DNA from: Chloroflexota bacterium
GTDB lineage: Bacteria > Chloroflexota > Chloroflexia > Chloroflexales > Herpetosiphonaceae
Direction: 5' to 3'
Assembly (NCBI GenBank): GCA_020161265.1
Contig: JAIUOC010000003.1
Span: 299,024-363,023 of the forward strand
DNA length: 64,000 nucleotides
The translations under genes were made by a program, and so were the position numbers. This document shows positions 15,341-57,548 of the stretch, piece after piece; within the stretch, counting starts at the first letter, position 1; each line of letters opens with the position of its first letter. The notes under the pieces were generated by a model. The model was not told the origin of the DNA. It made no database searches and saw only the letters and a program-made list of their open reading frames with translations.

Positions 15341-15416
15341 TCCCTGATAGCTCAGTTGGTAGAGCAATTGACTGTTAATCAATGGGTCCTAGGTTCGAGT
15401 CCTAGTCAGGGAGCCA
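15341..15416 (+). tRNA. tRNA-Asn (anticodon GTT)
   Basis: Cloverleaf read by hand: acceptor tccctga/tcaggga, D-arm gctcagttggtagagc, anticodon loop cuGUUaa, T-arm ggttcgagtcc, encoded CCA. Confidence 0.85.
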
Positions 15417-15436: not shown

Positions 15437-15512
15437 TCCCTGATAGCTCAGTTGGTAGAGCGGTTGACTGTTAATCAGCATGTCCTAGGTTCGAGTCCTA
15501 GTCAGGGAGCCA
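15437..15512 (+). tRNA. tRNA-Asn (anticodon GTT), second tandem copy
   Basis: Near-identical to the first copy, differing only in the anticodon stem and variable loop. Encoded CCA. Confidence 0.85.
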
Positions 15513-47368: not shown

Positions 47369-48844
47369 CTACTCGATACTAAAAACCATTTCAACATCAC
47401 CAATCCGAATCCGGTCACCAGGCCGCAGATGGTGCGGTTGATAGGCAGTCATTGGCACGCCATTGATGCTTGTGCCATTGATGCTGCCCAAATCAATTAA
47501 TAAATGATGATCACCCTGTTGTTCGATCACGGCATGGCGGCGCGAGGCCACACCCCGATCATGCTCAGCCAAATCGATCTCAGGATGATGATTTTGCGCC
47601 GGATCACGCCGCCCAATTCGGCAAGGAAAGTGGGTTAATGCCAATTCCCACACAGCGCGGGGCGAAGTAATCACTAGCTTGGGCACAGCCCGTTTGATTG
47701 CCGCGCCACAACCAGCGCAAAACCGCGCATTAGGTTTATTCATGCGGCCACATTGATCGCAAATTGGGCCATTAGCCTGGGGCGGCGGCGACCAAGCTGG
47801 GGTTTGGACGGGCGGTGCCCACGATGGGGCTGGCTGTGGCACAGGTTGCGGCATTGGCTGTTGATATTGTGGCGGACTGGGATTGCCCCAAGCTGGCGCA
47901 GGGTTTGGGTTCGGATTACCCCAGGCTGGCGCAGGGTTTGGATTGGGATTATTGAAAACTGGTGCTGGCATCGACATCATGGTTGGATCATCGCGCTTAT
48001 CGGGCACAATCACCCCACGATCAACCGCCAACAATGCTTGCTCAAACGAAGCCATGGTCTGAAAGCGCTTCTCGCGATCCATTGCCATCGACCGAATAAT
48101 CACCTGCTCCATCTCTGGGGTAACCGATTGATTATGTTTGATCAGCGAGCCATCTTTGGGAGTTTGCAGCGGCACAGGTGGCAGGTTAGTCAACATATGC
48201 AGCAAGGTTGCGCCCAAGGCATAAATATCAGCCCGCGCATCAGTTTGGCCCTTGCCATATTGCTCAGGTGGCGCATAGCCAGCCGACCCCATAGCCACGG
48301 TATCTTTACTTTTATTGGTTTTGTAGGTTCGCGCCACGCCAAAATCGATCAGCTTAATAATGCCTTCAGGCGTGAGCATCACATTCGGCGGCTTCATATC
48401 ACGAAAAATAATTGGGGGATTTTGGCTATGCAAATAATTAAGCACACGAGCAATCTGCACGCCCCAATTCAGCACATCACGTTGAAAAAATGGCGCGTTC
48501 ATTTCACGCTGCTTATCTTCAAGCGTTTTGCCTTGGACAAACTCCATCACCAGCGTGGGGCGACCAGCCTGCTCAAATGAATCGACCACTTTGGGCAAGT
48601 TGGGATGATCGAGCGTTTGCAATAATTGCGCTTCTTGGTCAAAGAGCTTGCGATTTTCGGCAATTTCCTCGGGAGCGGCCTCGGCTGGTGGGCGCATCTC
48701 TTTAACCGCCCAGGTTGAGCCATCGCTGAGGCGCTCGCCACGATAGACCGCGCCCATGCCCCCGCGCCCGATGATGCCGAGAATCCGATATTGATCGTGT
48801 TGTCCTTGAAGGATCGTGCCATCAGGCAGCAAATCAGCAAACAC
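47369..48844 (-). CDS. Ser/Thr protein kinase with a Pro-rich repeat linker, a zinc ribbon and a C-terminal FHA domain
   Basis: Kinase motifs 'AVKEM', 'FRDMKPPNV' and 'DFG'. '(NPNPNPAPAWG)x2'. 'CDQCGR...CAGCG'. FHA-like C-terminus '...RRHAVIE...GSINGTSINGV'. Confidence 0.8.
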   Translation of the reverse strand: MFADLLPDGTILQGQHDQYRILGIIGRGGMGAVYRGERLSDGSTWAVKEMRPPAEAAPEEIAENRKLFDQEAQLLQTLDHPNLPKVVDSFEQAGRPTLVMEFVQGKTLEDKQREMNAPFFQRDVLNWGVQIARVLNYLHSQNPPIIFRDMKPPNVMLTPEGIIKLIDFGVARTYKTNKSKDTVAMGSAGYAPPEQYGKGQTDARADIYALGATLLHMLTNLPPVPLQTPKDGSLIKHNQSVTPEMEQVIIRSMAMDREKRFQTMASFEQALLAVDRGVIVPDKRDDPTMMSMPAPVFNNPNPNPAPAWGNPNPNPAPAWGNPSPPQYQQPMPQPVPQPAPSWAPPVQTPAWSPPPQANGPICDQCGRMNKPNARFCAGCGAAIKRAVPKLVITSPRAVWELALTHFPCRIGRRDPAQNHHPEIDLAEHDRGVASRRHAVIEQQGDHHLLIDLGSINGTSINGVPMTAYQPHHLRPGDRIRIGDVEMVFSIE

Positions 48845-49107
48845 AGTTTCCCCCGCCGCTACATGATTGCGTAGCCTGTATTATCAACGATTGATACGCC
48901 AAAAGTCAAAGGGTTGTGGCAACTATTAATCAACAATTAAGCAAAAAAACTCAACTTAGCTGCAAAAAAATCACGCCAAATTGCATCTATACCTAGTACA
49001 GGCTGTGCTTGACAATCCTTGGTAGGATAGGACGTATCTCCTAGCGTTCCACCAAGCCACACCAATATACCACTCTCTGTTGCCAATTAGTTCTCTGGGG
49101 AGTTGTA

Positions 49108-50949
49108 ATGTCGCATTTATTACTAATCACGATTGGTCCAGTTCAAGATTTCATCGCCAGTGCTCGCCGAACCCGCGACCTCTGGTTTGGTTCGTGGCTG
49201 CTCAGCGAGTTGTCCAAAGCGGCGGCACAAAGCATTTATCAAGCTAAAGGTAATTTGATCTTTCCTTATCCAACCGATTCTGACCAAGATTTAGAGGCAA
49301 ATAGTGCTTTCAATGTACCCAACAAAATTCTGGCCGAGGTAGAGGGCGATGTCAAAACGATTGCTGACGCAGCCAAAAATGGCTTGGATACCCGCTTGAA
49401 CGAAATTCGTAACGGGGCATTTGCAAAAGTAACTGGTGCGTTTGATCAAGCCCGAGCCAATGACCAAATCAATGCTTTGATGGAATTCAATTGGGTTGCC
49501 CTGCCCTTAGGGACTGATTATGCGAAAACTCGCGAGCAGCTTGAACACCTGATGGCAGCTCGCAAAAATACTCGTAATTTTAGCGAGGTGACGTGGGGCA
49601 CTCGTGCTCCAAAATCCTCAATCGATGGCGAACGTGAATCGGTGATTGATGAAAAATACTATCCCCCTGCTGGGATGGCGAATACCTCGCCAGAATACGC
49701 CAAAATCGTGACTAGGCTCTATCGTGATTATGGAATCAACGTTGGTGAACGTTTATCAGGCGTTGATATTCTTAAACGTCATGGTCAAAAAGGTGCCGAT
49801 TCAAGATTTCCAAGCACCTCGCATATGGCTGCTATACCTGTTTTTAATTATTTGCTTGGAATGAATACCAAAGAGCAAAGTAAAAATAAGGTAGCCCAAT
49901 CGTGGGATACATACATTGCTAATTTAAATACTATTCCTGCGGCACAAGAATATATTCGCAATGAAGTTACTCCCAAATCACAGGATATTTTTAAAGATTA
50001 TGATGGTTCGCTCCTCTTTGCTGAACGTTTTAATGATGCTTTGGTAGGGGATGATCTGAAGAATGCTCAAAAATATCTGCATGATTTCTTAAAACCATTT
50101 CTTGATACTACAACTCCGATTCCCTACTATGCCATTCTGCATGCTGATGGTGATGCGATGGGGAAATTTATTAATGCGACCCATAGAATGGATGAACATC
50201 AAGACATTTCTGAAAAATTAACTAGATTTGCGGGAAATGTTAAGTTGATCGTGGAGAAACATCAAGGAGCCTTAGTCTATTCGGGCGGCGATGACGTTTT
50301 AGCATTTTTACCACTAACAAGTAGCTTTGAAATTCAAGAAAGTGACAATAAACGTTTCGCAACAGTTTTTGATTGTGCTGCTGAATTAGCTGATGAGTTC
50401 AAACAAAAACTTGCTAATTCAATGGTATCACTCTCGGTTGGCATTGCGATTGTGCATCACCTCGAGCCATTATCCGATGCCTTAGATTTAGCGCGTAAGG
50501 CTGAGCAGAAAGCCAAAGCTGTAACAGGTAAAAATGCGCTGGCAATCAACCTCAGCAAACGCGGCGGCGCAGATCGAATTATCGCCGGATCGTGGGCTAA
50601 ACCTGAGGGTCAGTTTTCGTTATATGAACGACTGACGCACCTAATCGAGTTACATCAAGCCGAGCAAATTCCCCTCGGCTTTGCCTTTGAACTGCACGAT
50701 TTATCTATTCGCCTAAAAGACTTGCCCGCCAACATTTTTCACGCCGAAGCCAAACGAATCATCGAGCGCAAGCATACAAGCAACGGTAAAAAAGTTAAGG
50801 ATACTATTGCAGGGCAATTACTCAAAATGATTGATGATTTGTTATTAGATCAAAATACCAAGCCTCATTCTGGTATTCAACAATTTGCTGATGAAGTCAT
50901 TATTGCCGAATTTATTGCTAAAGCACAGAAGCTCGCCAATGGAAATTAA
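49108..50949 (+). CDS. cmr2: Type III-B Cas10/Cmr2, short form lacking the HD domain and the Cys4 zinc finger. The GGDD cyclase motif is intact.
   Basis: N-terminal 'ITIGPVQDFIASARRTRDLWFGSWLLSEL', palm-1 'ILHADGDAMGKF', palm-2 'LVYSGGDDVLAFLPL'. The protein has a single Cys. 613 aa. Confidence 0.75.
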   Translation: MSHLLLITIGPVQDFIASARRTRDLWFGSWLLSELSKAAAQSIYQAKGNLIFPYPTDSDQDLEANSAFNVPNKILAEVEGDVKTIADAAKNGLDTRLNEIRNGAFAKVTGAFDQARANDQINALMEFNWVALPLGTDYAKTREQLEHLMAARKNTRNFSEVTWGTRAPKSSIDGERESVIDEKYYPPAGMANTSPEYAKIVTRLYRDYGINVGERLSGVDILKRHGQKGADSRFPSTSHMAAIPVFNYLLGMNTKEQSKNKVAQSWDTYIANLNTIPAAQEYIRNEVTPKSQDIFKDYDGSLLFAERFNDALVGDDLKNAQKYLHDFLKPFLDTTTPIPYYAILHADGDAMGKFINATHRMDEHQDISEKLTRFAGNVKLIVEKHQGALVYSGGDDVLAFLPLTSSFEIQESDNKRFATVFDCAAELADEFKQKLANSMVSLSVGIAIVHHLEPLSDALDLARKAEQKAKAVTGKNALAINLSKRGGADRIIAGSWAKPEGQFSLYERLTHLIELHQAEQIPLGFAFELHDLSIRLKDLPANIFHAEAKRIIERKHTSNGKKVKDTIAGQLLKMIDDLLLDQNTKPHSGIQQFADEVIIAEFIAKAQKLANGN

Positions 50950-50974
50950 TCCAACAAGTTTTTGGAGGATTGCT

Positions 50975-52450
50975 ATGACTACACGCCGAGAACGTTCTAA
51001 GCAAAAGCAACAAGCCAAAAGGCAAAACAGCAGCAATATCCAATTGGTTGAGCAAACATTGCTAACACCAACCATTGATCAAATAGCTGAACCAACAATT
51101 GAGTCGGATAATTCAATTCAAGTTGAGGCAAACTCAGATCAACCAACCAACGCTGAAACTACAACTCAGCAAGCGTGGCTGATCGAGCCGCGTGACCCGT
51201 TGATTGTGCGCGATGGCCGACCGTTTAACAATACACTAGGAGCACGCGCCTATACCCAGTCGTTTCCACCACCATCAGTTTTGGCTGGGGTTATTCGATC
51301 CCAAACCGCCTATGCAACAAATATGCGGCTTACCCTTGATAATGGTAAACCTAATCAACCTAAGCTTGATCTGCTTAAACAAATAAAAATTTATGGACCA
51401 TTGCTATTCAAATTGCCCAATCCAAACAAAGAAAAAAATGAGCCTGAATTCCTATGTGCTGCACCTGCCGATGCACTGTTATTTGAGCCTGAGGCCAAAA
51501 CCGAGGCCCAAGAATCCGACAATCAACAATCACCCGCAACTCGACCTTGGCTCTGCCGCTTGATGCCAATTCAGGTTCCTGAAGGGTTCGTCTGCGATTT
51601 TAATGAACTTGGCTTGGTTGGTTTAGTCAAAGCTGATCCACGTAAGCCAGCCAAAGAGCAACCGCAATTTTGGTATTGGAAGCATTTTCTGCAATGGTTG
51701 CAAGATCCTGAAGGATTGATCAATAAGACCAATCCTCAAGCCTCAAACCCCAAGACAATCGCCATGGGAGATTTGGGAATTAAAGGCTTACCAATTGATC
51801 AACGAACGCATGTACAGATTGATAGTGAGAGCCAAAGTGCTGAAGATGGCCGCTTATTTCAAACCCGTGGCCTAAGTTTTACCCAAACCAACGAGCAACA
51901 ATTAGCAGAAGCGCGGCGTTTGGCATTATATGTGCACGCCGATTACCGCGATATAACTGGTTTAAGCATTCCACAGCCAAGCATTGCCCCCTTGGGCGGC
52001 GAACGCCGTTTGGCTCATTGGGCAACAACCAATCATAACTTACCAGCATGCGATCAAGCTATTCTCGACGCAATCGTAGAAGCCAACGCCTGTCGCGTAA
52101 TTCTGCTCACCCCAGCGATGTTTGAACATGGCTATCGCCCAACTTGGCTTTGTCGCGAGGTTGATGGGGTGCAGCCAACACTTGCAGCAATCGCGATCAA
52201 GCGTGCTCAAGTTATTTCAGGCTGGGATTTAGCAGCACGTGGCGCTAAACCAACTCGCCGCCTAGCTCCTGCTGGCACAGTCTTTTTCCTCTCGCTAGTA
52301 GGCGAAAAACCTGCAATTGAAGCTTGGGTTCGCAACTATTGGATGCGTTGTATTAGCGATGCCGACCAAGATCGCCGCGATGGCTTTGGGTTAGCAGTGC
52401 TCGGAGTTTGGGATGGGACGTTCGCTGAAATTAAGGGGGTAACCAAATGA
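50975..52450 (+). CDS. cmr3: Type III-B Cmr3 (Cas5 family)
   Basis: 'WLIEPRDPLIVRDGRPF...SFPPPSVLAGVIRS' is a typical Cmr3 N-terminus. GGAGG RBS. Confidence 0.7.
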   Translation: MTTRRERSKQKQQAKRQNSSNIQLVEQTLLTPTIDQIAEPTIESDNSIQVEANSDQPTNAETTTQQAWLIEPRDPLIVRDGRPFNNTLGARAYTQSFPPPSVLAGVIRSQTAYATNMRLTLDNGKPNQPKLDLLKQIKIYGPLLFKLPNPNKEKNEPEFLCAAPADALLFEPEAKTEAQESDNQQSPATRPWLCRLMPIQVPEGFVCDFNELGLVGLVKADPRKPAKEQPQFWYWKHFLQWLQDPEGLINKTNPQASNPKTIAMGDLGIKGLPIDQRTHVQIDSESQSAEDGRLFQTRGLSFTQTNEQQLAEARRLALYVHADYRDITGLSIPQPSIAPLGGERRLAHWATTNHNLPACDQAILDAIVEANACRVILLTPAMFEHGYRPTWLCREVDGVQPTLAAIAIKRAQVISGWDLAARGAKPTRRLAPAGTVFFLSLVGEKPAIEAWVRNYWMRCISDADQDRRDGFGLAVLGVWDGTFAEIKGVTK

Positions 52451-53877
52451 ATCGTAAACCAACTATTGATGCACCGGATCTGGAAAATTATCAATTACCC
52501 AATCAATTTACTGTTGGCGAACATACCTATATCACCGAAACCCGCAGCTACAAGCTGATCACCCCATTATTTGGTGGCGGCATCGAGGCTGGAGTGAATG
52601 ACCCAATCACGCCTATTCGTGCTAGTGGCATTCGCGGCCAATTGCGCTTTTGGTGGCGAGCTATTCGCGGCGGCGGCTATAGCTCAATTGATGATTTACG
52701 GGCAAAAGAGGCTGAGATTTGGGGTAGTGCTAATACAAATAGTGATTCGAAGAAAAATCGACAACTTTTTAGATCGGTGCAAATTAACGTTACTGAGGTT
52801 ATTCATACTCAAAATGAAAAAAAGAAGTATGAAATTACTCCATACGAAGTCATAAAAAAAGATGGTAAGTACTCAGTCACTATAACTCGAAACAATCCTA
52901 TTCCTAGATATGCAGTATTCCCACTACAACCAACTACTGAGGAAGCACAAGAGATAAAAGATAACAAACAAGATAAGCGCATTAAAAAACTTACCCATAA
53001 TATCCATTTTGATTTAGAGATTACATATCACGAAAGTTTTGAACTTGAAATTCAATCTGCATTATGGGCATGGGAGACATTTGGTGGAGTTGGTGGTCGT
53101 ACCCGACGTGGATTTGGTTCGATCAAAAGACTTGATAATCTTACATATCCTAAAACTATAAAGGATTTCAGACAATGGCTTATTAAAAATTTTGAAAATT
53201 ACAGTGTACTAACATATCTGCATGAAAAATTGCCTCAACTAAATATTAATAACCCTATTCGATTTATGATCTTTTATAAAACAAAAAAACAAGGTTTATT
53301 TGGAATGTGGAGGGATTTGATAGAACAATTGAAATATTTTCGGCAAGCAAAAAATACTGATGGAACAAGTCTTTGGCCTGAACCAAATCAGATTCGTAGA
53401 ATTACAAAACAATATCTTAAGCATCATAATCCAGATAATGTTCAAGCAAATCCGCAGTATAAGATAATCAAGGCATTCCCTCGTGCCCAGTTTGGATTAC
53501 CAATCATTTTTCAGTTTAAAGGTAATAGATATGGATCTAATAGGAAAGATTTAGATCCTCGTCCTACAACTCTTGGATTAGTAAATCCCAATGATTCAAC
53601 AAAAGATAATGAGCGTTTAGCCAGCCCACTTATCTTAAAAACCTTCCAATGTACAAATGGAGATAGCATAGGGTTAGCATTTATTTTATCAGGAAGTGAA
53701 CTAGCGCCAAAAATGGAGCTAGCACTGAAGGCTAGTGGCCATCCTATATCTCCAAAATCAGAAGATCTTAGGTTTTTGTTGGAAGAAGATGAAAAAATTG
53801 ATATAGGTATTAGTGAGGTAAAAGGCAATATCCTTGAATCATTTTTAGCTTATCTTGATAAAAAAATGCCGAAATAA
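52447..53877 (+). CDS. cmr1: Type III-B Cmr1 (Cas7 family), long form
   Basis: 'TPLFGGG...PIRASGIRGQLRFWWRA' and a G-rich loop 'FGGVGGRTRRGFGS'. The central part is AT-rich and Lys/Asn-rich. Confidence 0.7.
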   Translation: MNRKPTIDAPDLENYQLPNQFTVGEHTYITETRSYKLITPLFGGGIEAGVNDPITPIRASGIRGQLRFWWRAIRGGGYSSIDDLRAKEAEIWGSANTNSDSKKNRQLFRSVQINVTEVIHTQNEKKKYEITPYEVIKKDGKYSVTITRNNPIPRYAVFPLQPTTEEAQEIKDNKQDKRIKKLTHNIHFDLEITYHESFELEIQSALWAWETFGGVGGRTRRGFGSIKRLDNLTYPKTIKDFRQWLIKNFENYSVLTYLHEKLPQLNINNPIRFMIFYKTKKQGLFGMWRDLIEQLKYFRQAKNTDGTSLWPEPNQIRRITKQYLKHHNPDNVQANPQYKIIKAFPRAQFGLPIIFQFKGNRYGSNRKDLDPRPTTLGLVNPNDSTKDNERLASPLILKTFQCTNGDSIGLAFILSGSELAPKMELALKASGHPISPKSEDLRFLLEEDEKIDIGISEVKGNILESFLAYLDKKMPK

Positions 53878-53947
53878 TCTACTGTTACTAGGTAAAAAAT
53901 ACTGTTCTCAAAGCATTTTTAGCCTATCTTGCGAAGGAGCTACGATA

Positions 53948-54829
53948 ATGACCACCAAACTCGTTTTTGTGCATGCGCTTTCACCACTTCATGCTGGCAC
54001 TGGCCAAGGCGCTGGAGTTATTGATTTGCCGATTGCCCGTGAAAAAGCCACCAACTTGCCCTATTTGCCTGGTTCATCGCTCAAAGGCCCGTTGCGCGAT
54101 AGTTACGATGGTGCTCGTAAAGACGAAATCTTTGGAACTGCATCAGATAACGCTACTGGTAACGCTGGCTACGTTCAATTTTCTGATCTGCGCTTGTTGT
54201 GCATGCCGGTGCGCAGCTTGTATGGCACCTTCGCATGGGTTACCTCGCCCTACATTCTCAATCGCCTTGCCCGCGAAATCAAAAATCTTTTTACTGAAAA
54301 CACCCCACCGAGCTGGATCGAAAACCCTGATGTCGAGCAATGCCTTGTCGTTGCCGGATCAGCACTTAAATCAAACTTGCCAAAATCAGAAAAGCACAAG
54401 GATATTTATTTAGAAGATTTAGATTTTGAATATCAAGCAGATCAAGCTGAGCTAGTGACCCAATGGGCTGATTGGCTCAAAGAGCGTATTTTTGGCGATT
54501 TACCAGAGTGGCAACCCATGTTTGTCGAGCGTTTCTGCATCGTCAATGATGATGTATTTAGTTTCCTTCTGAATACAACGACCGAAATAACTGCTCGGAT
54601 TCGGCTCAACGATGAGACCAAAACAGTTGCCGATGGTCAACTTTGGTATGAAGAAGCCTTGCCTGCCGAATCGATTTTGACTGGCTTGATGTTGATTGCT
54701 CCGCCAGCCTCAAAAACAGACGTAGGAGACAGCATTAAGACTGAGCTACCACGCCTGTGGCAAAAACCAATTCAGCTTGGGGGCAAGGCCACCGTTGGGC
54801 GTGGCATTTGTCGCGTGATTGTGAAATAG
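53948..54829 (+). CDS. cmr4: Type III-B Cmr4 (Cas7 backbone subunit)
   Basis: 'LSPLHAGTGQGAGVIDLPIAREKATNLPYLPGSSLKGPLRD'. GAAGGAG RBS before ATG 53948. Confidence 0.8.
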   Translation: MTTKLVFVHALSPLHAGTGQGAGVIDLPIAREKATNLPYLPGSSLKGPLRDSYDGARKDEIFGTASDNATGNAGYVQFSDLRLLCMPVRSLYGTFAWVTSPYILNRLAREIKNLFTENTPPSWIENPDVEQCLVVAGSALKSNLPKSEKHKDIYLEDLDFEYQADQAELVTQWADWLKERIFGDLPEWQPMFVERFCIVNDDVFSFLLNTTTEITARIRLNDETKTVADGQLWYEEALPAESILTGLMLIAPPASKTDVGDSIKTELPRLWQKPIQLGGKATVGRGICRVIVK

Positions 54830-54839
54830 GAGCAGCACA

Positions 54840-55310
54840 ATGAGTAATTCAGTCTTTCAAACTCGTGATCAACAATATGCTGCTTCAGCGTATGCTCATA
54901 TTGAAGAAGTTCTAGAAAAATATCCAAAACCGGATATTAAGTCAGATGAAAAAAACACACTGGTGTACAAAAAAAACCGCAAACGCTACGGGGTCATAGC
55001 ACATAAATTGCCTATATTAATTAGAACTGCTGGCTTAACGCAAGCATTGGCATTTATTAGTTCACGGAGTAAGAAAAATAAAACTGGCAAAGAAGATGAA
55101 TTTAGTTTATTCCTAAGCCATCTTGCAAAAACAATAAACATAGATACAAATGATCTTGTTCAATATAGTATCCAACAACCCCTATCAAATTATATGTATC
55201 TAACCCAACAGGTGCTTGATGCACTTTTATGGTATAAGCGCTTTGCTCAAAGTGTACTTGATGTTGATCCAACTGATCAACTTGATGATGAGCAGGGAGC
55301 TGAAGCATGA
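54840..55310 (+). CDS. cmr5: Type III-B Cmr5 (Cas11 small subunit)
   Basis: 156-aa helical protein between cmr4 and cmr6, e.g. 'HKLPILIRTAGLTQALAF'. Confidence 0.65.
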   Translation: MSNSVFQTRDQQYAASAYAHIEEVLEKYPKPDIKSDEKNTLVYKKNRKRYGVIAHKLPILIRTAGLTQALAFISSRSKKNKTGKEDEFSLFLSHLAKTINIDTNDLVQYSIQQPLSNYMYLTQQVLDALLWYKRFAQSVLDVDPTDQLDDEQGAEA

Positions 55311-56155
55311 GAAGCAGTCGTTTAGAGGTTAAATATGAGCATATTTCAACAAAAGATAGGCCTAGTGATTGTAATGCAGGCTTATGGCTAGATCGTTATT
55401 TATCTGATCAATCAAACGATGATGGGAATTTCAAACCAAAGCATTTCGCCGATGTTACCAAAATTGCACATCACATGCATAACTCTAAACTCTATCGAGC
55501 ATTTTTTACCCGTTGGTTGAACACATTAAAGGGGATTCCTGAGATTTGTTTGTTGAAGGCGACCGTCGAGGGCCGTATGGTCGTGGGGCTGGGAGCCGAA
55601 AGTGTGCTCGAAAACGCTATTGCCTTGCAGCGCACCTACGGCTTGCCTTACATTCCAGGCAGTGGCTTGAAAGGCTTGGCATCGAGCTTCGCTCACCAAC
55701 GCCTTGGCCAAAGCCCAGCCAACGCTGATACCCTCAACGATTGGGCTAAGGGTGGAAAATTTCATCGCGAATTATTTGGCACAACCGAGCTAAGTGGCTG
55801 CGTTAGCTTTTACGATGCTTTGTATATTCCTAATACGGCTCAGGCTGGTGGTCCATTGCATTCGGATGTGATTACTGTGCATCATCCTACGTATTATCAA
55901 GGCAATTCAACCCCGCCAGCGGATTGGGATAGCCCAGATATTATTCCGTTTCTTAGCGCAACTGGTCACTATTTAGTAGCACTCAGCGGAGACCCGAATT
56001 GGTGTAATGCCGCCCGCACCCTGCTCGCTAATGGCCTGACGCATATGGGTATTGGCGCAAAAACATCAAGCGGCTATGGCCGGATGAAACTTGGGGAAAT
56101 GTGTAAGAACGAGCAACAAATCGAAGCCCTACTTCAACGTTTGAATAAAAAATAA
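55307..56155 (+). CDS. cmr6: Type III-B Cmr6 (Cas7 family)
   Basis: 'GLGAESVLENAIALQRTYGLPYIPGSGLKGLA'. Overlaps the cmr5 stop (ATGA). Confidence 0.75.
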   Translation: MRSSRLEVKYEHISTKDRPSDCNAGLWLDRYLSDQSNDDGNFKPKHFADVTKIAHHMHNSKLYRAFFTRWLNTLKGIPEICLLKATVEGRMVVGLGAESVLENAIALQRTYGLPYIPGSGLKGLASSFAHQRLGQSPANADTLNDWAKGGKFHRELFGTTELSGCVSFYDALYIPNTAQAGGPLHSDVITVHHPTYYQGNSTPPADWDSPDIIPFLSATGHYLVALSGDPNWCNAARTLLANGLTHMGIGAKTSSGYGRMKLGEMCKNEQQIEALLQRLNKK

Positions 56156-56221
56156 GAGCGCTTTTGATGATGAGTTAAAAAGGTTTTTCATTAATTTTTA
56201 TTTTCACTTAAGGAGTCATCG

Positions 56222-57076
56222 ATGAAAATTCTTTTATCGCTAGTTGGTGCCCAACCTTTGCCGAACCTTATTCCTATCTATCACCTTAAACCAGATTTAG
56301 CATTGCTTATTTATACTGGTGGAACAGTCAAACAAGCTAATAATACTGCGGCGCTTCTAAGATCCAAAAATATTGAAACTGAAATTATATGTACGGATTC
56401 TTATGATATCTCAAAGATTACCCGACAGATAGAGGAAGGTATTTCTAATTTCAGCGCAGGTAATGAGATTTACTTTAATGTTACTGGTGGAACAAAACCG
56501 ATGTCATTTGCCGCTGCCCAGGTGGCACGAAAATACAACTTTCCTGTGGTTTATCTTGAGAGCGAAGCAGGCAAAAGTAAGTTGTATACATATGCTTGGA
56601 AAGATTTTGAATTCCATCTCATAAAAGAAGATTCTATACCACCTTGTATAGCACTAGAGGATTGGCTAGATGTTCATTTAGGCTTAGAAAATTGGTCTAT
56701 CGAGAAAGTAAAAGAGCCTTTTGAAGAAGCAGTTATAGGTATTCTGGAAAAGAATAATATTGAAATATTATCAGCTGTACGTTCTTTCTCAGGACAGATA
56801 GATTTAGATGTAATTTATCGTAAGGGTAATCATTTTGGTATTATTGAAGTGAAATGCGGAGAAAAAGGTAAAAAAATTGAAGGTATAAGACAACTTAATA
56901 CAACGGGTTTACACTTAGGTATTTATTCAAATAAGATTCTAATTATTACAGAACAACCTGGGAAATCTCAATTAGCCCTTGCAGATGCATCAAATGTGCA
57001 AATTCTTTCAGTTAATTTTGATGGCTCTACTATTGATGAAGATTCTGAAGCAAAAATATTAAATATTATTAAGTGA
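56222..57076 (+). CDS. CARF-domain protein with a C-terminal PD-(D/E)xK nuclease-like domain (Can2/Card1-like cOA-activated effector candidate)
   Basis: N-terminal 'MKILLSLVGAQPLPNLIPI' CARF-type Rossmann start and C-terminal 'IDLDVIYRKGNHFGIIEVKCGEK' (D...EVK). AT-rich gene. Confidence 0.55.
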   Translation: MKILLSLVGAQPLPNLIPIYHLKPDLALLIYTGGTVKQANNTAALLRSKNIETEIICTDSYDISKITRQIEEGISNFSAGNEIYFNVTGGTKPMSFAAAQVARKYNFPVVYLESEAGKSKLYTYAWKDFEFHLIKEDSIPPCIALEDWLDVHLGLENWSIEKVKEPFEEAVIGILEKNNIEILSAVRSFSGQIDLDVIYRKGNHFGIIEVKCGEKGKKIEGIRQLNTTGLHLGIYSNKILIITEQPGKSQLALADASNVQILSVNFDGSTIDEDSEAKILNIIK

Positions 57077-57110
57077 TATTATTCGAGTAGAATTTAACGA
57101 AGGAAACCCT

Positions 57111-57500
57111 ATGCTTCTGATTAACTTTGCGCATCCATTGACTGATAAACAGTTTGCCCAAGTTGTAGCGCTGGTCGATGAAACGCCCGAAATTCGCTTT
57201 GTCGATACCCAAGTGAGCCGCATGCGGCCTTTGGCTGAGGTTGCTTACGATTTGATTGAAAGCATCGGCTTGAAAACCGCCGATTGGCAAACAATCCCAA
57301 TTATTATCAATCCGCCGGGGCTGGCTCCATTGGCCTTGGCGGTTATCGCTGAGTTGCATGGGCGCTCCGGCTATTTTATGCCAATCATCAATATGCGCCC
57401 TGTGCCCAATACCACCCCAACCGTTTTTGAGGTAGGCGAGATTTGCAATTTGGATGCAATTCGTCAAGTCGCCCGCACTCGGCGAATTCCTAAACTGTAG
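57111..57500 (+). CDS. Small (129 aa) uncharacterized protein co-oriented with the cmr module. Possible accessory protein (Csx3/ring-nuclease-like?), unverified.
   Basis: Position and orientation only. Alternating beta/alpha pattern 'WQTIPIIINPPGLAPLALAVIAELHG'. Confidence 0.35.
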   Translation: MLLINFAHPLTDKQFAQVVALVDETPEIRFVDTQVSRMRPLAEVAYDLIESIGLKTADWQTIPIIINPPGLAPLALAVIAELHGRSGYFMPIINMRPVPNTTPTVFEVGEICNLDAIRQVARTRRIPKL

Positions 57501-57548
57501 CAGCAACACAGGGCATCGATATGATTTGATCGGTGCCCTGCATTTAAT

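Follow-up and report, generated by a model that had tools for sequence, protein, structure and literature searches.

A compact Can2/Card1-family CARF-nuclease paired with Csx15 is the candidate effector of a Herpetosiphon type III-B CRISPR locus

The stretch of Herpetosiphonaceae DNA analyzed here (64 kb in total, referred to below as the window) carries a type III-B CRISPR operon in the gene order cmr2-3-1-4-5-6, followed by a compact can2-like gene as the seventh gene and then by csx15, all on the plus strand. The seventh gene is the subject of this report. A first-pass annotation had called an open reading frame (ORF) of 284 amino acids (aa) at 56222-57076 and had described its product as a compact CARF plus PD-(D/E)xK protein, likely an effector dependent on cyclic oligoadenylate (cOA). 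The ORF was found exactly there, on the plus strand and with an ATG start, and both protein strings that had been quoted were present in the translation, namely, the N-terminus MKILLSLVGAQPLPNLIPI and the string IIEVKCGEK in the C-terminal half. Compact can2 is separated from cmr6 by 66 nt and from csx15 by 34 nt. The coordinates of the genes, domains, and motifs are listed in Table 1.

The upstream genes bear on the expected output of this operon. Residues 393-396 of Cas10 (nt 50284-50295) formed the cyclase motif GGDD, and its orthologues matched Pfam Cmr2_N, Cas10-Cmr2_palm2, and mCpol and had no HD domain. Because the GGDD motif is intact and the HD domain is absent, signaling is expected to be the main output of the system.

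To describe conservation, we used an alignment of 34 relatives of 284 to 318 aa, which was the source of all conservation counts and of the family profile used in the searches below. The N-terminal half of compact Can2 matched Pfam PF23400 (CARF_Card1) over residues 3-116 (E 5.5e-13, 49.6 bits versus a cut-off of 24.6), and a PDB search with the single sequence matched Can2, Card1, and "DUF1887" chains, convincingly via the CARF half only. The N-terminus had originally been read as a CARF start of the Can/Card type, and a CARF_Card1 domain was confirmed by Pfam, by the PDB profile search, and by the structure matches. Within this half, we located NxTGGTK, the conserved cOA-binding motif of the Can2 family as defined in PMC10783487, and the N, T, G, G, T, and K of the motif were invariant in 34 of the 34 relatives. 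The invariant columns of the CARF half included N86 and T88-G-G-T-K92, as well as G9, Q11, P14, N15, Y111, and S114. SthCan2 hydrogen-bonds cyclic tetra-adenylate (cA4) via S19, D20, H21, T42, K99, Y118, and S121, and its D20 and H21 touch cA4 partly through main-chain atoms (PMC7969007). These seven residues aligned with G9, A10, Q11, T32, K92, Y111, and S114 of compact Can2, respectively. Four of the seven contact positions (T32, K92, Y111, and S114) were identical to those of SthCan2 and conserved in the 34-member alignment, and the counterpart of SthCan2 Ser19 was an invariant Gly in the compact family.

In the case of the C-terminal half, neither Pfam nor NCBIfam gave a significant nuclease-domain match, and the nuclease assignment therefore rests on hhalign, the PDB profile search, and structure. 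This half aligned with the nuclease domains of Can2, VC1899, NucS, and AF1548, and it contained a PD-(D/E)xK fold with an intact active site, including a counterpart of the E-ExD-(E/S)CK catalytic motif. In the family-profile alignment, FE168 fell on GGWFE, D194-x-D196 fell on ELD, and E209-x-K211 fell on IECK. The catalytic string proposed at the outset, D-x(12)-IIEVK, holds if its D is D194, and the full acidic set is D194-x-D196 together with E209-x-K211; E168 is a further conserved acidic residue beyond the motif that had been named. When the D/E-K catalytic residues were sought in a proper alignment, they were present and either invariant or, at position 194, acidic in all 34 relatives (D in 29 and E in 5). 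D196 was invariant, and so were E209, K211, and Q224. Because of this invariance, the nuclease motif is not a chance match.

The two halves were also recovered together. A search of the PDB with the family profile matched the whole chains of SthCan2 (7bdv, E 8.8e-24) and Card1 (E 4e-17), with separate CARF and nuclease stretches, and it detected the nuclease half that the single sequence had not detected convincingly. An hhalign comparison of the family with eight Can2 proteins of 380 to 417 aa aligned both domains with a probability of 99.9 and an E value of 1.6e-33. Structure prediction was then used to look for the CARF and nuclease folds, and both were found. The AlphaFold2 monomer model had a pLDDT of 94.9 and a pTM of 0.89, with all residues at or above 70, and the best 20 Foldseek matches in the PDB were all Can2, Card1, Cdn1, VC1899, or Can1 (top TM-scores 0.72-0.75, normalized on the query).

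The first-pass annotation had noted that the protein was shorter than Card1 and Can2 and might be a minimal variant. The length difference was evident, as the solved Can2, Card1, and Cdn1 chains are 366 to 439 aa, and it has one cause, which is the absence of the alpha-helical insertion domain (INS). INS links the CARF and restriction endonuclease-like (REase) domains in six of the seven Can2-like clades, and a "clade 4" without INS was described by Jungfer et al. (PMC10783487). In the hhalign comparison, there was a single large gap in the query, of about 75 to 100 residues relative to a 380-aa Can2, and it was located at query residues 158-166, between the CARF and nuclease domains. In the model, the two domains were joined by about 20 residues with one helix only. 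The absence of INS accounts for the approximately 80 to 150 residues that are missing relative to characterized Can2 proteins. The proposed minimal variant thus turned out to be a compact form without INS that belongs to a coherent family. An exhaustive profile search returned 301 cluster representatives at E ≤ 1e-30. Nearly all of the top 150 were 285 to 325 aa and matched end to end, which indicates that the compact form is a coherent family of considerable size rather than a truncation. An earlier estimate of only about 35 clusters, which came from a word-indexed homologue search, was rejected as a word-index artifact.

Table 1. Features of the compact can2 gene and the surrounding type III-B operon (positions in the window)
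Feature	Position	Strand	Evidence or remarks
cas10/cmr2, 613 aa	49108..50949	+	TIGR02577 E 6.9e-56
cmr3 (start codon uncertain)	50885..52450	+	TIGR01888 E 7.3e-28, 97.7 bits, just below 100.4-bit cut-off
cmr1	52447..53877	+	TIGR01894 E 2.4e-19
cmr4	53945..54829	+	TIGR02580 E 2.1e-74
cmr5	54840..55310	+	Pfam Cas_Cmr5 E 2.8e-23
cmr6	55307..56155	+	TIGR01898 E 8.7e-37
Shine-Dalgarno AAGGAG	56210..56215	+	6 nt ahead of the compact can2 ATG, read from the sequence
Compact Can2-like CARF-nuclease coding sequence	56222..57076	+	ATG start, 284 aa plus stop
CARF domain, residues 1-140 (Rossmann-like core plus beta-hairpin 118-138)	56222..56641	+	Pfam, model secondary structure, PDB profile search
N86-V-T-G-G-T-K92, the NxTGGTK cOA-binding motif of the Can2 family	56477..56497	+	Alignment
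Short linker, residues 141-160, one helix (145-153), at the INS position of canonical Can2	56642..56701	+	
PD-(D/E)xK (REase) nuclease core, residues 161-284	56702..57073	+	
E168, first catalytic glutamate (helix 166-177)	56723..56725	+	Invariant in 34/34; aligns with GGWxE of Can2 and Card1
D194-L-D196, counterpart of Can2 "ExD"	56801..56809	+	Aligns with E276-L-D278 of SthCan2
E209-V-K211, ExK catalytic motif	56846..56854	+	Aligns with IECK of Can2 and Card1
csx15, 129 aa, predicted cA4 ring nuclease or sponge	57111..57500	+	NCBIfam, PADLOC

The architecture is already known, since it is catalogued both in PADLOC and in the description of "clade 4." Residues 1-284 matched positions 1-281 of the 285-position PADLOC model PDLC01887, "CARF4--CARF_PDDEXK," with an E value of 1.6e-110 and 367 bits. 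The CARF4 label of this model presumably derives from the CARF1-9 clades in the CARF classification paper. Compact Can2 and the Can2-like "clade 4" (Jungfer, Sigg & Jinek, NAR 2023/24, PMC10783487) share a CARF domain, a short linker, a PD-(D/E)xK domain, the lack of INS, the NxTGGTK motif, an E-(D/E)xD-ExK motif, and a location in type III loci, and we found no difference between them. This comparison places compact Can2, as a putative member, with the INS-less "clade 4" by shared architecture and not by accession match.

The better-characterized relatives differed from compact Can2 in several ways. SthCan2 (7BDV) and the Dysgonamonadaceae Can2 (8BAO), which are from type III-B systems, are 366 to 387 aa, carry an INS of four helices and two strands, and are 15 to 19% identical to compact Can2, in which Ser19 is replaced by Gly. 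TresuCard1 (6WXW) and TbrCan2 (8Q3Y) also have INS. Card1 is from a type III-A system and TbrCan2 is from a type III-D system, whereas compact Can2 is in a type III-B system; in addition, TbrCan2 has an E-ExD-SxTTS-K motif and uses INS residues for substrate and base contacts. Can1 (6SCE) resembles compact Can2 in having a CARF4-type CARF domain and a PD-(D/E)xK nuclease, and it is activated by cA4. However, Can1 is monomeric, is 638 aa long, and has a second CARF domain as well as an extra nuclease-like domain, whereas the 284 aa of compact Can2 hold a single CARF domain and a single nuclease domain.

The gene downstream of compact can2 was identified as csx15 by NCBIfam (CAS_Csx15, NF040560; E 4.7e-41, 139.9 bits versus a cut-off of 35) and by PADLOC (Csx15, E 1.3e-38). 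Csx15 binds cA4 specifically and sponges or slowly hydrolyzes it (PMC13148439). The Csx15 in the window contains H8 and H83 as well as clustered arginines near the C-terminus (R118, R122, R124, and R125). By position, not by alignment, we likened these residues to H13, H90, and the Arg cluster of CliCsx15/PfCsx15. Effectors of the Can1-2 group have no intrinsic ring-nuclease activity, and an extrinsic ring nuclease accompanies 66% of their loci (PMC12409355).

The same neighborhood was observed around relatives of compact can2. For a first check, six homologues were located by exact sequence. Type III genes adjoined all six, in the form of a cmr operon in five cases and of a type III locus with Csx19 in one. 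A directly adjacent gene of 125 to 129 aa that scored as Csx15 (E 6e-42 to 3e-49) was present in five of the six. We then scanned one genome per species, took the best 80 of 194 relatives as loci (L010-L089), and searched them with ad hoc hidden Markov models; context counts were made on the 48 loci with at least 6 kb of upstream sequence and at least 1 kb of downstream sequence. Cas10 and/or Cmr4 was found in 44 of these 48 loci, and compact can2 usually occupied the same operon position in them. Csx15 was found in 38 of the 48, and it was within 300 nt of compact can2 in 31. Among all 80 loci, 47 had Csx15 no more than 300 nt from compact can2. The pairing is much tighter than the 18 Csx15-containing loci of PMC12409355 would imply. 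The hosts of the best 80 relatives were mostly Chloroflexota (Anaerolineae, Chloroflexia, Ktedonobacteria, and Caldilineae), and the others included some Bacillota, one cyanobacterium, and one Methanotrichaceae archaeon.

The fold, the homology, the intact motifs, the absence of INS, and the conserved neighborhood are established by the analyses presented here. On these grounds, the ORF very probably encodes a Can2/Card1-family protein of compact form (CARF4 clade), which is predicted to be a cOA-activated nuclease effector, and homology, motifs, structure, and gene context all support the effector role suggested in the first-pass annotation. The most likely function is that of a cA4-activated, metal-dependent nuclease that is switched off by Csx15.

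Dimerization, ligand, substrate, and activity of compact Can2 are what we infer in the following model, which draws on family knowledge and published biochemistry. The Cmr complex encoded upstream would bind a transcript that matches its CRISPR RNA (crRNA), and Cas10/Cmr2 would then make cOA. A compact Can2 homodimer would bind this messenger, which is most probably cA4, in a pocket between the paired CARF domains that may be formed by G-x-Q, T32, NxTGGTK, Y111, and S114, as judged from the conserved SthCan2 contacts. Binding would rearrange the nuclease domains such that E168, D194, D196, E209, and K211 could coordinate a divalent metal and cut nucleic acid. By analogy with Can2, Card1, and Cdn1, the output would be nonspecific cleavage of single-stranded RNA or DNA and/or DNA nicking, and the invader and the host would both be slowed. 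Neighboring Csx15 would then sequester or slowly hydrolyze cA4, and the response would be turned off.

The alternative that fared best retains a cOA-responsive effector and gives it an activator and/or a substrate unlike those of characterized Can2 proteins, such as cA6, cleavage of double-stranded DNA as an endonuclease, or another sequence preference. We consider this possible, although unlikely. The TbrCan2 residues that make substrate and base contacts (R213, K217, E296, and N299) are in INS, modeled double-stranded DNA clashed with the backbone of both protomers, the allosteric relay residues between cA4 and the active site are clade specific, and cOA recognition is plastic within the family, as seen in Cdn1 and Card1. 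Because the TbrCan2 contacts use INS and the relay residues are clade specific, we transferred no substrate preference to compact Can2. None of our results spoke directly against this proposal, but the part of it that involves an activator other than cA4 is disfavored by the linkage to Csx15. The proposal is a refinement of the best explanation and not a contradiction of it.

A related and more doubtful suggestion is that the INS-less Can2 clade is a mechanistically distinct effector, with other substrates (e.g., duplex DNA) or another allosteric relay, which has perhaps coevolved with Csx15 as a fixed effector and off-switch cassette, mainly in Chloroflexota type III-B systems. If this suggestion were true, the native effector partner of Csx15, a protein whose role was recently debated, would be identified.

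The remaining explanations (a VC1899-like nonsensor, a ring nuclease, and a transcription factor) were considered and rejected. The first holds that the Can2 fold is retained while cOA sensing has been lost or another ligand is sensed, and that the protein is a constitutive or differently regulated nuclease that hitchhikes in a cas island. VC1899 (1XMX) itself is not linked to CRISPR, has lost the cA4 contacts, is inactive in vitro (PMC7969007), and is 380 to 385 aa with an INS-type motif. VC1899 has Asp, Asp, Arg, and Val at four cA4 contacts, whereas the compact family retains T32, K92, Y111, and S114 and the NxTGGTK motif. The type III context of 44 of the 48 adequately flanked loci, usually at one operon position, also argues against hitchhiking, and the pairing with a cA4-specific protein implies a partner that responds to cA4. 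We therefore regard this explanation as quite improbable.

A role as a cOA-degrading ring nuclease or cOA sponge, in which the CARF domain would do the work, the nuclease-like domain would be a mere scaffold, and signaling would be damped, was judged highly improbable. There was a weak likeness to Crn1 at the CARF level (NCBIfam E 0.029), Foldseek matched Sso2081 and Sis0455 on the CARF half, and intrinsic ring-nuclease activity is common among CARF proteins. However, the Crn1 model NF040581 scored 14.1 bits versus a cut-off of 125, and compact Can2, unlike a stand-alone CARF protein, has a second domain that looks catalytic. The five nuclease positions, which were invariant or acidic throughout the alignment, indicate selection on a working active site, and the CARF domains of characterized Can2 proteins have no ring-nuclease activity. 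In addition, the Csx15 next door in most loci would make a second cA4 remover redundant, and the locus would be left without any effector. Finally, the NCBI names [quoted passage not shown] and "DUF6293 family protein" would make the protein a transcriptional regulator, which is extremely improbable, because the Pfam HFX_2341_N match (residues 18-114, 31.5 bits versus a cut-off of 30) is confined to the CARF-like N-terminal half beneath the far stronger CARF_Card1 match, and the C-terminal half, for which no helix-turn-helix or winged helix-turn-helix was reported, has a nuclease fold with an intact active site.

Thus, the two public names are misleading for this cluster, and the database names are corrected here for the only candidate signal-activated effector of the Herpetosiphon type III-B module. 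In our literature search, we found no paper that characterized an INS-less member, no paper that joined Herpetosiphon with CARF and type III, and no published "Can3" name associated with CARF terms for the short form; the main text of the 2025 CRISPR classification does not mention Can2, Card1, or Csx15. The protein is an ordinary, though uncharacterized, compact Can2/Card1 effector paired with Csx15. In conceptual terms, it goes no further than known Can2/Card1 biology until its activator and substrate are measured. What the counts given above do document is the strong pairing of INS-less Can2 with Csx15. At 284 aa, compact Can2 is among the smallest CARF-nuclease effectors and could interest builders of type III CRISPR diagnostics.

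Two relatives of the family were found in unusual settings. A metagenomic protein of 399 aa (P0036) had an N-terminal EAD1 domain (effector-associated domain 1, PF19955, E 9.1e-18) fused to the CARF domain, and its nuclease motif was degenerate, with ExK changed to AxR and the otherwise invariant Q224 changed to R. This protein therefore resembles a sensor-adaptor derivative more than a nuclease. In another cmr operon, a 979-aa NACHT/HEAT-repeat gene was located between cmr1 and cmr4 (L005:4793-7732 and L006:4793-7732), and the same locus also carried compact Can2 and Csx15.

Among close relatives, the window DNA was 83 to 94% identical to H. aurantiacus DSM 785, and the compact Can2 orthologue of that strain differed at 6 of 284 positions, none of which was a functional residue. 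The cmr3 assignment in Table 1 can be read alongside an orthologue in H. llansteffanensis (L001) that carries Pfam Cas_Cmr3. H. llansteffanensis also has an extra gene of 437 aa (L001:8660-9973) between cmr6 and compact can2, which belongs to the TIGR02221/cas_TM1812 family and has a DxTHG motif. At this position, the window (56156-56221) and H. aurantiacus DSM 785 have just a 66-nt spacer. Because the spacer takes the place of this gene, compact Can2 is the sole candidate effector of the locus in the window.

Compact can2 had been called the most AT-rich gene of the locus, and the gene-by-gene composition agreed. Its GC content was 33.9% (21.8% at third codon positions), and the next-lowest value was 35.7% for cmr5, followed by 36.1% for cmr1, 43 to 47% for the remaining cmr genes, and 50% for csx15; the GC content of the whole window was 49.6%. 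The cmr-can2-csx15 island (window positions 48900-57540) was GC-poor at 34 to 47%, csx15 excepted, relative to flanks of about 52%, and GC content swung between genes within it, from 34 to 36% in cmr1, cmr5, and can2 to the 50% of csx15. This profile suggests that the island is mosaic or was acquired horizontally. In H. llansteffanensis, the island lies between the same flanking genes.

No CRISPR array, cas6, adaptation genes, or Rfam CRISPR repeat family was found within the 64-kb window, and because an array and cas6 are absent from it, the type III-B module must depend on crRNAs produced at another genomic location. The genes that flank the island are unrelated and are on the opposite strand; one encodes a methyltransferase, and the other encodes a Ser/Thr kinase that carries an FHA domain. 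Within the kinase gene (47369-48844, minus strand), a 33-nt tandem repeat at 47880-47951 duplicated "NPNPNPAPAWG" in the linker of the Ser/Thr kinase-FHA protein. Elsewhere in the window, tandem tRNA genes were observed at 15341-15413 and 15437-15509, with 93% identity over an 81-nt repeat and a spacing of 96 nt.
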